Source of the DNA: Candidatus Thorarchaeota archaeon | GTDB taxonomy: Archaea > Asgardarchaeota > Thorarchaeia > Thorarchaeales > Thorarchaeaceae | Reading direction: 5' to 3' | Assembly (NCBI GenBank): GCA_048884965.1 | Contig: JBHLQH010000012.1 | Span: 28,428 to 92,427, forward strand | Length of the DNA: 64,000 bases | Part shown: piece by piece, positions 37,917-49,402 of the stretch | How the letters are laid out: each line of letters starts with the position of its first letter | How positions within the stretch are numbered: the stretch's first letter is position 1 | Position numbers and translations under genes: made by a program | Notes under the pieces: model-generated | Database searches by the model: none | The model's input: only the letters and a program-made list of their open reading frames with translations | Told to the model about the DNA's origin: nothing

Positions 37917-38924
37917 TTGCCTAGTAAAGAGTTGACTGACTTTAGTGATGATGAACTATATGAAGAACTGAGAGCTCGCGATGGAAAACCTGAATCACCA
38001 TCTCCTAATCCTGAACTTGCACGGTTCTCTTTTCGTGATCTCTTGAGGGCTCTAAATATATACGATCAGGTTGTATATGGTGAAGACAATAGAGTCGACC
38101 TCTATGAGGTGCACGATCCTGAAGTACTTCATGTTGCTAGAGGTGTATGTGCCATATTCCTACATGATACTGTTGAGAAAATAGATGATAAGAATTTCAG
38201 GTTAAAGACAACTAGATTCTCAGAGGTAATCATGACAGATTGTTTTGGAAACAGTGGTAAGATATGTAAGAATGAGCGTTTCAACAATCAACCTTGCGGG
38301 GCAATAGGAACAGCTTTCTTGATAGCTCCGGATATTGTAGCCACGGCGGGTCATTGTGTAGCTCACAAGAATGCGTCAAGAGATATGTTGTATGTGAAGA
38401 AACTCCGTTTCGTTTTCGGGTACCAGATGAAGAATAAGGATACGCACACGAGTCAGGTTGCAAGGTCGGATCTCTATTCTGGGCATACACTTCTTGGACG
38501 TAGTTATGACGCCCAAGACAACGATGTTCCTGATTGGGCTTTGATAAGATTGGATCGTCCCGTTACAGGTCGCACTCCTTTGGAGATTCGCACTAGTGAG
38601 ATAATTGATGATGCTGAGATTGTGTATGTATTAGGCTATCCTTATGGTCTACCTTTGAAGTATTCACCAAAAGCTTGGGTAAGAGATAATGACCATCCTA
38701 TTTACTTCACTACGAATACTGACACATTCCAAGGAAATTCAGGCTCTCCAGTTTTCAATGCATGTACGAATGAAGTAGAAGGTATTTTGGTTCGCGGCGA
38801 ACAAGATTTCACATTTAAACCGTCATCGAAATGCTTCAGGGTAAGAGCGTTGGACGATACTTCTGGTGAAGGCGAGGCGTGTACTAGGATTGTGCTCCTT
38901 CATAATATATTGACTTCTGACTAA
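37917..38924 (+). CDS. Trypsin-like (S1) serine protease with no signal peptide and an acidic pro-region
   Basis: TAGHC, DWALIRL and GNSGSP catalytic triad motifs; VVYGEDNR mature-start-like motif. Confidence 0.9.
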   Translation: MPSKELTDFSDDELYEELRARDGKPESPSPNPELARFSFRDLLRALNIYDQVVYGEDNRVDLYEVHDPEVLHVARGVCAIFLHDTVEKIDDKNFRLKTTRFSEVIMTDCFGNSGKICKNERFNNQPCGAIGTAFLIAPDIVATAGHCVAHKNASRDMLYVKKLRFVFGYQMKNKDTHTSQVARSDLYSGHTLLGRSYDAQDNDVPDWALIRLDRPVTGRTPLEIRTSEIIDDAEIVYVLGYPYGLPLKYSPKAWVRDNDHPIYFTTNTDTFQGNSGSPVFNACTNEVEGILVRGEQDFTFKPSSKCFRVRALDDTSGEGEACTRIVLLHNILTSD

Positions 38925-39042
38925 CCATGCTGGAAAAAAGCAATTAGGATGCAATCATCCCTCTTTTTCTGTCTCATTTTCGTATTTTCTAAAAAGACCA
39001 CTTTCATATGATATTGTGGAATAATATCAATCCGTGTCATTC

Positions 39043-48400: not shown

Positions 48401-49402
48401 TGTATTAAATCAAGCAACGATTTAGTCGCTTTGTCAGGTTTCGGATCCATTGAATTCTTTAGCACACATAGACCAGATCAAATCGAATTCCAATTATTAG
48501 AAGAAGATAGAAAGGATTGGATCGTGGACATGGATTTCGATGCACAGAATAAGTACTTTGCATGTGTAGGTGCAACAGGAGCAAAACTATGGTTTCTGGA
48601 TAGAAATCATTGTGAACTCGTACAGAATATTCCCACAGACTATCAAGCGACATCACTTCTTTTCTTGAACAATGGTAGAAATCTAATATTCACAGAATAC
48701 GGAGGAATGCTTTACAGCTACGATACAGAATTAAAAACCTTGGAAAAGTATGAGCAAAATGTTAGTTATCCACATGGTATGGTGTTTGATTCAAACAGCT
48801 CTGATTTGATTGTGGGTGCAGATGATGGTCATCTTTGGAGATTAGATGTTAGTGATGGTGATTGGAAATTTAGGAAAGATAGGAAATATGGTGAGAAGAT
48901 AACTAATATAGCAATCTCCGAAAACTCAAAGTATCTTGCCTTAGGGCATGGAACTAATATTATTCATGTTCTTGATTTGAAGAAGAATACTAGTACTCAA
49001 ATCAATCATGATTTCAATGTTCAATGCTTTGCATTTCATCCAACAATGAACTTTCTTGTTACCGGTGGAGCGTTTAACCGTATTCAGATGTGGGATTTGG
49101 ACAATCTTGCGAATTATCCTATTCAAATTCAGGATGTAAATATAATTCCATTGTTTGGCAAAGTGACTTGTACTCGGGCAAATATAGTTTCATTAGCCTT
49201 TGCTGAGCATGGGAAATGGCTAATTTCCGGAGCATGGGACGGAAGTGTTCATATGCGGAGAGCCAACACTGAAGATCTTGCGAATATAGTATGTGAAAGA
49301 GCTTGGAGTAATTTGAGTAATGAAGACTGGAAGTATTTCATAGGTGAAGACATTCACTATGAGAAGACGATTTCTCATTTGCCTGATGGATTTGGAATCT
49401 AA
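45479..49402 (+). CDS. TIR - nSTAND1 NTPase - WD40 NLR-like receptor 2 (paralogue)
   Basis: TIR YDLFISHS; CPYPGM..F; GPSGSGKTS; LLIIDQFEELF; DISHEVL; GHTWEVSHVSFSP...SSSRDGTIRIW. Start may be TTG 45488. Confidence 0.92.
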   Translation: MFLLPRSVEIEYDLFISHSKVAEDSNWVHNYLIPALGISKDRIITRDSFRLGEDIIDEFSRAITTSKYTFVILTQAYINDNLATCAEKIALFTEVDEDRVRLIPILKEPCDIPRTIDIKVKVDFTDESIDPRINVASLLNLLEMPLPEEQHLECPYPGMKSFSFDDDFLFCGRDEKINDMISHIRHNSFLILLGPSGSGKTSLIFGGFLPKLLKSRTSKRNRWLAISMRPLSSPMRELQFALGIELEELGKEIRDLLKQQEKDELLLIIDQFEELFTLSNRKTGNEFLDVLLKLIDLDCCTVIVSMRSAFYENLQTSKLWDKVKGNRCHIKPLVGDDLRKAIRHPANKRFVYIDPGLVEQLVAEAADEPGYLPMIQETMHMLWERMEGTSITRDDYRKLGNGKKSGLAEAFSRVADNSIKGLSDKDLAVVRAILLRLIHLEEGVTGVRRQQTKIKLRSVCRSKKRFDNILSLLEEKRILTLSEKEQKVDISHEVLIREWKILREWIKELKDSELRRRVLMTKYTEWQRFKKERKEGGLLDAAELPEAKLYLNSPDAIELGSVKEIKSLVDASESWRKRQEEQRNILRNQSLVRALTGHAMQRYEKFHEHEKAALLARQAYLFYDRWRGNSLSIVDATLRDILSKPDYSITIDVSSRCTPKDYRTRTPRFSYSRDGEILFINCTQHFHTIHFNDSRYQTTNPSRYMPVRSEIAFDNRDQLVAYVSDLSEICVYDRGNLKKSPLILSYKETPIESLDISKDGRLLVASLQGGKIVLWDLMDLENEPQVLNLYNQYSKCSSVAFNDSGNSVAVAFPKSGIVLYDLSKDKKSFGKVVADSVLADSTNAKLLFYGPKGKYLGVIFSNERVKIWDFSKPQISPIEIIHDRPTCLAFSPDNDIIAIGNSIGLIHLYSLKNSENPFQILQGHTWEVSHVSFSPQGSTMASSSRDGTIRIWYLFSPPSRPIIREKNPKLDRSTCIKSSNDLVALSGFGSIEFFSTHRPDQIEFQLLEEDRKDWIVDMDFDAQNKYFACVGATGAKLWFLDRNHCELVQNIPTDYQATSLLFLNNGRNLIFTEYGGMLYSYDTELKTLEKYEQNVSYPHGMVFDSNSSDLIVGADDGHLWRLDVSDGDWKFRKDRKYGEKITNIAISENSKYLALGHGTNIIHVLDLKKNTSTQINHDFNVQCFAFHPTMNFLVTGGAFNRIQMWDLDNLANYPIQIQDVNIIPLFGKVTCTRANIVSLAFAEHGKWLISGAWDGSVHMRRANTEDLANIVCERAWSNLSNEDWKYFIGEDIHYEKTISHLPDGFGI

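Follow-up and report, generated by a model that had tools for sequence, protein, structure and literature searches.

Gene content of the locus

ORF prediction and domain scans of the 64,000-nt window (the whole stretch of DNA that was analysed, in which all positions are given) located all five genes that the first-pass annotation had described between 37917 and 49402. Its assignment of the DNA to a probable Asgard archaeon was supported by the host genome, which is Asgard-like in having an actin gene (445 bits) and 36 Ras-family GTPase matches. The features of the locus, with the rest of the island taken from Pfam, NCBIfam and PADLOC scans, were as follows:

36740-37678 and 54962-55972: conserved AsnC-type HTH regulator genes flanking the island (synteny)
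37700..54950, no strand: strain-specific island holding the module, ~17 kb, absent from a same-genus genome
37917..38924, +: cytoplasmic trypsin-like serine protease (Trypsin_2, E 2.6e-16)
39043..39777, -: Zn-ribbon and 3-TM protein, divergent from the caspase gene, near-orphan
39903..41150, +: caspase-TIR effector (ORF open from 39783, probable start Met41 at 39903)
~39918-40640, +: caspase (C14) domain of the effector (Pfam Peptidase_C14, E 2.6e-19)
~40725-41150, +: TLR-like TIR domain of the effector (TIR_2, E 1.1e-12; TIR, E 1.5e-10)
41186..45295, +: receptor 1, TIR-nSTAND1-WD40, starting 35 nt past the caspase stop codon
~41237-41635, +: receptor 1 TIR (TIR_2, E 2.9e-11)
~41663-42871, +: receptor 1 nSTAND1 NTPase (E 3.7e-76)
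~43250-45175, +: receptor 1 tandem WD40 propellers (Pfam)
45479..49402, +: receptor 2, paralogue of receptor 1 (TIR_2, nSTAND1, WD40)
~45506-45913, +: receptor 2 TIR (TIR_2, E 3.8e-11)
~45941-47074, +: receptor 2 nSTAND1 (E 1e-85)
~47340-49300, +: receptor 2 tandem WD40 propellers (Pfam)
49640-51109, +: TPR protein
51125-52924, -: B12-binding radical SAM enzyme, ApyD-like RiPP type
53479-54873, +: weakly C25-like protein

HMM scans placed Peptidase_C14, TIR_2, nSTAND1 and WD40 in the expected genes, and the order that had been read from the sequence, a TIR-nSTAND1-WD40 gene 35 nt past the caspase and then its paralogue, was reproduced by Pfam and the ORF coordinates. The module itself consists of three genes, the caspase-TIR and the two receptors, and not of five. 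All three ORFs are uninterrupted (415-455, 1369 and 1307 aa), and the catalytic dyad, the Walker A and B motifs and the TIR core motifs are intact in their proteins.

The caspase-TIR most likely starts at Met41 (39903): this is where its homologues start, the gene call in the database has 415 aa, and the model shows disorder over residues 1-39. With this start, ~125 nt and not 5 nt separate the gene from its divergent neighbour. The His/Cys pair that had been called intact corresponds to His128 and Cys184, which were invariant in an alignment of 105 homologues. The caspase domain qualifies as Peptidase C14 by its PF00656 match, its His-Cys dyad and its fold matches; Foldseek with the AF2 model (pLDDT 79.8) returned GSU0716, MALT1, metacaspases and caspase-7 for this domain (E 1e-11 to 1e-8), and also the Hydra TRR-2 TIR for the model. 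A sequence search of the PDB with the caspase domain gave no match, and no other sensor or regulatory domain was found in the protein by Pfam or in the AF2 model. The window protein is highly divergent: in a tree of 49 caspase-TIR proteins its branch length was 2.09, against a median of 0.31, and ~12 residues that are highly conserved among homologues are replaced in it, so that the protein may work differently or be decaying. TATA-like AT-rich elements lie ~30-45 nt upstream of the caspase and receptor 2 starts. A sigma-70 promoter scan gave 34 sites, with 40 expected; the host is archaeal.

Both receptors have the tripartite layout of nSTAND1 conflict systems, with a TIR_2 domain, an nSTAND1 NTPase and a WD40 sensor. 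Their nSTAND1 (PF20703) scores were 257.6 and 289.1 bits, against a curated cut-off of 27.1; NACHT matched the NTPases weakly, with nSTAND1 dominant, and NB-ARC (PF00931) gave no match in either NTPase region at E <= 0.01. The receptor 1 translation shows Walker A (GPSGSGKS) and Walker B (LLIIDQFEE), and GPSGSGKS/T with DQFEE is legible in both receptors. The two proteins are 36% identical along their whole length and 44% identical within residues 1-600; the latter value exceeds the identity of receptor 2 to any of >2,100 other homologues. The AF2 model of the receptor 2 sensor (pLDDT 78.9) is a tandem propeller of ~14 blades, and Foldseek placed Apaf-1 entries 3sfz and 3shf (TMq 0.42) among many tandem-WD40 proteins matching it. 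The 183-nt AT-rich gap before receptor 2 probably supplies this gene with a promoter of its own.

Bacterial relatives, neighbouring genes and the island

A single-sequence search of genome contigs with the caspase-TIR protein returned no related locus, and the comparison was made on 54 fused caspase-TIR loci from named bacterial genomes, found by an alignment-based scan. A second TIR gene was present in 37 of the 54 loci and a TIR-nSTAND1 gene in 28; when only the 32 loci flanked by 5 kb or more on each side were counted, these numbers were 26 and 19, respectively. The caspase-TIR adjoins a TIR-nSTAND1(-WD40) gene in Planktothrix agardhii and on two metagenome contigs. A domain shared by an NTPase and a separate adjacent effector, recurring across genomes as in EAD-type systems, was found here with TIR as the shared domain. 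Similar bacterial gene sets had been suspected in the first reading, and this co-occurrence confirms them: judged from gene neighbourhoods, the caspase-TIR and the TIR-STAND-WD40 receptor are a functional pair which recurs across bacterial phyla, that is, a conserved bacterial module.

The trypsin-like and Zn-ribbon genes were present beside the caspase as described, but neither has a homologue in any of the 54 caspase-TIR loci, and their proposed membership of the module was not upheld. The trypsin-like protein carries TAGHC and GNSGSP motifs, shows no hydrophobic segment by hydropathy and is therefore cytoplasmic; with >1,399 homologues it belongs to a stand-alone, mostly bacterial family, the distribution of which is unrelated to that of the module, and it was rejected as a component. 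The neighbourhood of one trypsin relative contained other proteases, a nuclease and a patatin, with no STAND and no caspase gene. The Zn-ribbon protein has two CxxC pairs followed by three hydrophobic segments (KD 2.1-3.0), with 8 relatives among 1.84 billion representatives, in the TM part only. Their neighbourhoods are unrelated, and its proposed role as a membrane effector found no support and was rejected. Of the rest of the island, the TPR protein had no homologue in the caspase-TIR loci, the radical SAM enzyme had two weak matches (L026 and L084), at ~8 kb from the caspase gene, and the C25-like protein had one (L070).

A transmembrane helix, predicted from Kyte-Doolittle hydropathy only, lies between NTPase and propeller in 107 of 118 receptor homologues and in 27 of 30 receptors linked to a caspase-TIR. 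Both window receptors have an alignment gap exactly where the homologues have this helix; with the helix deleted in both, the archaeal receptors are predicted from sequence to be soluble and cytosolic. Since ~90% of the bacterial counterparts have the predicted helix, the family overall is not a cytosolic Apaf-1 analogue, and what holds for these relatives, most of which are predicted membrane-spanning proteins, may not apply to the archaeal receptors in their soluble form.

Same-genus genome G001 does not have the island that holds the module: on its contig C56 the two regulator genes directly adjoin each other, and the synteny shared around them shows 58-82% amino-acid identity between the two genomes. 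The GC content of the module core is 39.0%, against 44.1% ± 1.7% for the genome, which places it in the lowest 0.5% of 10 kb windows, while the tetranucleotide correlation with the genome is 0.90 (7th percentile, within the host range). Among the 400 Asgard genomes searched, the full-length caspase-TIR occurred only in the present genome, and nSTAND1 only in this genome and one other. The close relatives of all three module genes are bacterial, with a best bacterial identity of ~43%; no donor can be named, as the 2.09 branch of the caspase-TIR lies between two bacterial clades. The suggested horizontal acquisition is thus sustained by an island absent from a genome of the same genus and a gene found singly among the Asgard genomes, and the distribution marks the module as a lone, recent-looking acquisition and not as archaeal heritage. 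No integrase, tRNA gene, Rfam match or convincing flanking repeat was found at the island borders; the sole candidate repeat is a 28-nt pair, 75% identical, at 37817 and 49282.

TIR domains and proposed mechanism

TIR domains of bacteria are known as NAD-consuming enzymes or signal generators, and those of animals mainly as adaptors. For both TIR types of the module the best matches, in sequence and fold, were animal TLR and Hydra TRR-2 TIRs. The catalytic Glu was taken as the residue where helix alpha-C begins (the Glu of TLR "YEL" and plant "WCLxEL"), and the register of the receptor TIRs was confirmed by profile alignment to TLR1/2/6. The caspase TIR has a TLR-type RDxxPG BB-loop and Glu390, the counterpart of the TLR1/6 Glu in the alignment, conserved in 92 (88%) of 105 homologues, whereas the same column in the receptor TIRs holds I, T, V or G in 104 of 120 homologues, Ser in receptor 1 and Ala in receptor 2. 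An Asp or Glu stands at +1 from the canonical site in 99 of 120 receptor TIRs (Arg in receptor 1) and could conceivably substitute for the canonical Glu. The Glu asymmetry between the two TIR families favours the receptor TIR as an adaptor or nucleator. The earlier proposal that TIR serves as the adaptor therefore stood in part: the receptor TIR without its catalytic Glu fits it, but the caspase TIR keeps the residue, so that it is not certain that both TIRs are adaptors and nothing more. Complex prediction for the receptor 1 TIR (residues 10-155) with the caspase TIR (305-455) gave 0.40, against 0.39 for one control.

The module is best read, with a probability of about 0.5, as a horizontally acquired, bacterial-type, two-component STAND "conflict" system for immunity or regulated cell death, with soluble cytosolic sensors. 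We infer the following course of events, from the sensing of a ligand through oligomerisation and TIR-TIR recruitment to the way in which the protease is activated and what this does to the cell. A ligand would bind either of the two divergent propeller sensors, upon which the nSTAND1 NTPase would switch and oligomerise, and the receptor TIRs, without the canonical catalytic Glu, would cluster into a scaffold. This platform would recruit or nucleate the TLR-like TIR of the caspase-TIR through TIR-TIR contacts, the C14 protease would be activated by induced proximity, and an NAD-cleaving activity of the Glu-retaining caspase TIR may be activated too. Proteolytic shutdown, death or dormancy of the cell would follow. 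A more specific form of this scheme, which we hold only tentatively, is that the pair is a prokaryotic "TIR-some", in which catalytically dead receptor TIRs would purely nucleate the caspase-fused TLR-like TIR in a CARD- or Death-type role. The bacterial form would then signal across the membrane from an outward-facing propeller, and the Asgard version would be derived from such a system, made soluble and cytosolic by nature.

Signalling could instead be Thoeris-like, with a TIR (that of the receptor with its shifted Asp/Glu, or the caspase's own) making an NAD-derived nucleotide that activates the caspase with no TIR-TIR docking. In type IV Thoeris, N7-cADPR couples a caspase-like protease to a TIR protein (bioRxiv 10.1101/2024.10.24.620036), and production of cADPR by TLR-type TIRs has recently been reported (bioRxiv 10.64898/2026.04.20.719644), which, with Glu390 kept in the caspase TIR, leaves room for a small-molecule step; the +1 Asp/Glu of most receptor TIRs points the same way. 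This reading is nevertheless unlikely, given that the receptor TIR is without the canonical Glu, with Ser-Arg in receptor 1 at this site and the next, that the caspase-TIR has no recognisable nucleotide-sensor domain besides its TIR, and that the PADLOC "caspase" model matched it in part (E 1.1e-14), over positions 3-130 of 453. Comparably doubtful is a relic or repurposed module, the genes of which drifted after transfer and are decaying or act in non-immune regulatory proteolysis. The extreme caspase-TIR branch and the loss of ~12 family-conserved residues would fit this, as would the disappearance of the TM helix from both receptors and the singleton status among 400 Asgard genomes. PADLOC found no known defence genes in the island, which would fit as well, and in PADLOC and NCBIfam scans named defence systems gave domain-level or sub-threshold matches only; of the Avs1-5 models run against the receptors, NCBIfam Avs4 scored 16.7 bits against a cut-off of 1500 and PADLOC Avs gave no match. 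Decay is, however, at odds with three long uninterrupted ORFs with intact motifs, and with the retention of two paralogues with divergent sensors, as expected of a diversifying receptor set.

A misjoin of bacterial DNA to an archaeal contig, through assembly or binning, is highly improbable. The bacterial affinity of all three genes, a bin contamination estimate of 7.2% and the low GC content would agree with it, but the island lies inside a single 92 kb contig with both flanks syntenic with the same-genus genome, where they adjoin, and on this synteny the mis-assembled bacterial fragment that the first reading had named as a possible refutation was rejected. The tetranucleotide composition and the TATA-like elements also speak against it, and with a best bacterial identity of only ~43% no donor-like contaminant was identified.

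Comparison with known systems

The nearest counterparts of the acquired STAND system are the EAD-coupled STAND/nSTAND1 systems of multicellular bacteria (Kaur, Burroughs, Iyer and Aravind, eLife 2020, PMC7159879, and eLife 2021, PMC8195603), for which the "EAD principle" holds that the same domain on an NTPase and an adjacent effector signifies adaptor coupling (Kaur et al. 2020, PMC7159879). In both, nSTAND1 stands between an effector or adaptor at the N-terminus and a repeat sensor at the C-terminus, and a stand-alone effector next to it (a caspase) bears the receptor's N-terminal domain; both are enriched in Cyanobacteriota and Chloroflexota, and for both an apoptosome-like assembly is predicted. 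The EAD-coupled systems use small EADs or Death-like domains, whereas the window module shares TIR, and its host is an Asgard archaeon. In the same two papers TIR is treated mainly as an NAD-processing effector; the supplement of Kaur et al. lists TIR+nSTAND1 and nSTAND1+TM, with CASPASE+TIR only fused to TERNS3. The majority nSTAND1 form has a TM helix (nSTAND1+TM+BetaPropeller), unlike the window receptors. New here are the archaeal copy, the two receptor paralogues and the deletion of the TM helix from both.

Apaf-1 likewise joins a STAND-superfamily NTPase to a C-terminal tandem beta-propeller sensor, and caspase-9, like the window effector, is a caspase-family protease with the adaptor-type domain of the receptor N-terminus; both sets of proteins are soluble and cytosolic, by prediction for the window. 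The window NTPases, however, are of the nSTAND1 clade with no NB-ARC match, TIR takes the place of CARD on both receptors and caspase, and the caspase is bacterial, C14/paracaspase-metacaspase-like. The label "apoptosome-like" given in the first-pass annotation therefore fails as homology and stands as an analogy without orthology. The Gao-lab survey (PMC13581612) reported true Apaf-1 orthologues from cyanobacteria, in which the caspase is itself fused N-terminally to the receptor.

Type IV Thoeris (Rousset et al. 2025, bioRxiv 10.1101/2024.10.24.620036) likewise unites a TIR with a caspase-like protease in a single immune module, and both systems would be expected to end in proteolysis of the abortive-infection type. 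It has a separate catalytic TIR protein (ThsB-type) and caspase-like ThsE, linked by the diffusible signal N7-cADPR, and no STAND sensor, whereas in the window the caspase is fused to a TIR and a second TIR, without the catalytic Glu, is on a STAND receptor. As in TLR-MAL/MyD88 signalling, a receptor TIR is proposed to nucleate the TIR of a downstream protein, which here is fused to a protease and in MyD88 to a Death domain. Plant TNLs share the TIR N-terminal to a STAND NTPase, but their TIRs need the Glu for catalysis, which the window receptor TIRs do not have. The proposed window system is prokaryotic.

With its two unlike TIRs, this widespread pair allows the question of whether prokaryotes already have adaptor-type TIR signalling to be addressed directly. 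Should the "TIR-some" reading prove true, no non-eukaryotic system so far would, by its architecture, come closer in function to an apoptosome/Myddosome hybrid, and biochemical work would have a handy soluble model in the Asgard copy. As a single recent-looking acquisition and not a lineage trait, the module has no bearing on eukaryogenesis; it indicates that bacterial death or immunity modules can enter Asgard genomes. Having no membrane helix, the archaeal receptors should pose fewer difficulties in expression and reconstitution than those of bacteria.

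Gene content and extent of the module

The ORF listing and Pfam scans of the window recovered all five genes named in the first-pass annotation, and the HMM scans it had proposed matched Peptidase_C14, TIR, nSTAND1 and WD40.

Genes between positions 37917 and 49402 (position, strand, product, source)
37917-38924, plus strand, trypsin-like protease (ORF listing and Pfam)
39043-39777, minus strand, protein with two CxxC pairs and three strongly hydrophobic segments (ORF listing)
39783-41150, plus strand, Peptidase_C14-TIR fusion, caspase-TIR (ORF listing and Pfam)
41186-45295, plus strand, receptor 1, TIR-nSTAND1-WD40, beginning 35 nt past the caspase stop codon (Pfam)
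45479-49402, plus strand, receptor 2, second TIR-nSTAND1-WD40 (ORF listing and Pfam)

The 35-nt spacing and the second receptor paralogue were both as first described. The caspase dyad, which had been called intact, consists of His128 and Cys184 and was invariant in 105 homologues, while Walker A and Walker B were read as intact in the translated NTPases of both receptors. Met41 (39903) is the most likely start of the caspase gene: it is where homologues begin, the gene call in the database has 415 aa, and the AlphaFold model shows residues 1-39 as disordered. Caspase-TIR forms a compact protein family of about 410 aa.

Gene pairing was counted over 54 loci with a fused caspase-TIR, 32 of which were flanked by 5 kb or more on either side. 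Of the 54 loci, 37 (26 of the 32 well-flanked) carried a further, separate TIR gene and 28 (19 of the 32) a TIR-nSTAND1 gene, so that the co-occurrence for which a synteny search had been suggested does recur in bacteria. In Planktothrix agardhii and two metagenome contigs the caspase-TIR gene directly adjoins a TIR-nSTAND1(-WD40) gene or a split version of it. None of the 54 loci contained a homologue of the trypsin, the Zn-ribbon/3-TM protein or the island's TPR protein; one (L070, an Acidobacteriota contig) had a homologue of the C25-like protein 3 kb from the caspase-TIR gene, and two weak radical SAM matches lay about 8 kb from the caspase gene (loci L026 and L084). Since homologues of the other island genes hardly occur in caspase-TIR loci, the predicted functional unit is three genes, caspase-TIR and the two receptors, and the trypsin and membrane effector first listed as components were set aside. 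The sole trypsin match adjoins a caspase gene without TIR (locus L076). The window trypsin is a member of a large, mainly bacterial family of stand-alone proteases, and the Zn-ribbon/3-TM protein is a near-orphan with 8 relatives in 1.84 billion representatives, whose similarity is confined to the TM part and whose contexts are unrelated.

The island also encodes a B12-binding radical SAM enzyme (51125-52924), with the RiPP enzyme ApyD as best match (276 bits, below the cut-off), and next to it a 464-aa protein (53479-54873) with a weak match to Peptidase_C25 (clan CD).

Genomic island and origin

The source contig is 92 kb long and belongs to a 4.09 Mb bin (95.7% complete, 7.2% contamination). 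A true actin (445 bits with the Pfam Actin model) and 36 Ras-family matches in the genome together form an Asgard signature, which agrees with the earlier view of a probable Asgard archaeon. DNA and protein comparison with same-genus genomes showed that contig C56 of one of them, G001, carries homologues of window ORFs 16530, 29500, 31863, 32377, 36276 and 36740 with the counterpart of 54962 immediately after them (amino-acid identity 58-82%), and that 37917-54873 is absent from this syntenic place. The module thus sits in a strain-specific island of about 17 kb between two AsnC-type regulator genes. The same synteny ruled out a mis-binned bacterial contig, and the mis-assembled bacterial fragment considered at first was not borne out. 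The module core has a GC content of 39.0% versus 44.1 ± 1.7% in 10 kb genome windows (lowest 0.5%), and a tetranucleotide correlation with the genome of 0.90 (7th percentile).

Three AsnC-type HTH paralogues of about 310 aa (36740-37678, 54962-55972 and 56573-57496) frame the island, and more are clustered at the same place in same-genus genomes, which suggests that the insertion site is a recombination-prone regulator array. A 28-nt direct repeat, 75% identical, at 37817-37844 (upstream of the trypsin gene) and 49282-49309 (near the end of receptor 2), 11,465 nt apart, is probably due to chance.

No caspase-TIR orthologue was found in the genomes of 40 relatives with the protein as query. Among 400 genomes of the phylum, the family profile gave a full-length match in the window's genome only; in 73 others the match covered only a portion of the profile, almost always that of the caspase. 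Beyond the window's genome, nSTAND1 was present in one further genome of the 400 Asgard genomes searched. That match, at locus L115 (G249:C148:1-2859), is a SIR2_2-nSTAND1 protein following an FGE-sulfatase-EAD7 protein; the contig is 2.9 kb long, its bin is 89% complete, and the match could be contamination or another transfer.

The best 80 loci of 398 caspase-TIR relatives in species-representative genomes were all bacterial, mainly Cyanobacteriota and Chloroflexota, with Actinomycetota, Pseudomonadota, Verrucomicrobiota, Acidobacteriota and Planctomycetota less represented. The best caspase-TIR identity outside the window's genome was 43%, and the branch of the window protein in a 49-protein tree was so long (2.09 versus a median of 0.31) that no donor lineage could be named. 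Receptors 1 and 2 are mutually closest (44% identity over 600 residues), with at most about 41% identity to any of more than 2,100 others. The module is a singleton acquisition in this archaeon; the horizontal transfer raised earlier as a possibility agrees with the island missing from a same-genus genome, the bacterial relatives and the lone occurrence among 400 phylum genomes. Being a lone acquisition, it sheds little light on any archaeal roots that eukaryotic cell death may have.

Receptor topology, TIR domains and proposed signalling

A TM helix was predicted 50-90 residues past the NTPase in 107 of 118 TIR-nSTAND1 homologues and in 27 of the 30 receptors whose genes neighbour a caspase-TIR gene. 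In about 90% of bacterial TIR-nSTAND1 receptors (loci L001-L080, proteins P0128-P0245) this predicted single helix separates the NTPase from the propeller or FGS sensor, and the propeller is on this basis predicted to face outwards in most bacteria. The supplement of Kaur et al. (eLife 2020, PMC7159879; eLife 2021, PMC8195603) includes "nSTAND1+TM" architectures. Both window receptors have a deletion exactly at the helix site in the alignment, and because of it the whole receptor is predicted to be cytosolic in this archaeon. In the model of the receptor 2 sensor (pLDDT 78.9), about 14 blades form a tandem propeller, with fold matches to tandem-WD40 proteins generally, Apaf-1 included.

By sequence profile and fold, both TIR families are closest to animal TLR-type TIRs (TLR1/2/6/10/15 and Hydra TRR-2). 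The caspase TIR has a TLR-type RDxxPG BB-loop and carries Glu390 at the conserved catalytic Glu position of TIR domains, kept in 92 of 105 homologues. Receptor TIRs lack this Glu: the column is I/T/V/G in 104 of 120 homologues, Ser in receptor 1 and Ala in receptor 2, its register being confirmed by profile alignment to TLR structures. Asp or Glu stands at +1 in 99 of the 120, and Arg in receptor 1. Of the evidence available, this difference speaks most strongly for the receptor TIR acting as a scaffold and not as an enzyme; the caspase's own TIR may be catalytic. Synthesis of cADPR by TLR TIRs was reported in a 2026 preprint (bioRxiv 10.64898/2026.04.20.719644).

From sequence anatomy and gene co-occurrence, the most likely reading (probability about 0.5) is that a ligand would bind the receptor propeller, the nSTAND1 NTPase would then oligomerise, the catalytically dead receptor TIRs would cluster, and caspase-TIR would be recruited and activated, perhaps along with activity of its own TIR. 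Signalling through a diffusible NAD-derived molecule is rather unlikely, as is a drifting or repurposed relic, and an assembly artefact, against which the synteny with G001 speaks, is very improbable.

The locus is consistent with the adaptor-coupled STAND conflict systems that Kaur et al. predicted, TIR taking the adaptor's place. In type IV Thoeris (bioRxiv 10.1101/2024.10.24.620036), by contrast, a separate catalytic TIR acts on the caspase via N7-cADPR. The label "apoptosome-like" holds for the similar proposed logic but not for Apaf-1 family membership, since the NTPase is nSTAND1 without an NB-ARC match and CARD is absent. The gene pair and its horizontal origin stand from the first-pass annotation, and the trypsin and membrane components do not. 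The metacaspase-TIR architecture was catalogued in 2012 (PMC3501461). In the literature searched, no paper describing or testing the caspase-TIR/TIR-nSTAND1 pair was found, nor any for archaea, in line with the earlier statement that no characterised archaeal example was known; PADLOC and NCBIfam hold no model for the pair. The module belongs to a known but uncharacterised bacterial system type, and new here are the archaeal host, the predicted soluble receptors and the two receptor paralogues. It is useful mainly as a tractable case in which to test whether TIR domains serve as signalling adaptors in prokaryotes.

Other features of the window and host genome

G001 also lacks two further window blocks at the syntenic region, 18182-29397 and 33345-36034. 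Two giant ORFs occupy the former (18182-24805 and 24922-29397), one of 2207 aa with no Pfam match and the other of 1491 aa whose C-terminal region is of the beta-helix/NosD type; positions 13807-16413 encode another beta-helix protein. The latter, a variable block missing at this place from the same-genus genome G005 as well, contains a GNAT acetyltransferase, a small LRR protein and a protein of 378 aa that has a Ras-like GTPase domain at its C-terminus. Positions 87-9800 hold the last part of an operon for an extracellular contractile injection system, among whose products are a DUF6519 fibre-like protein and two eCIS_core (DUF4157) proteins. Elsewhere in the host genome (G000:C38:5342-7792; locus L117, 2843-5293, minus strand), a 376-aa protein with a Big_7 Ig domain and a Peptidase_C14 caspase is encoded directly beside a Ras/Roc GTPase of 389 aa that has a coiled-coil tail, a pairing that may be native to Asgard archaea.
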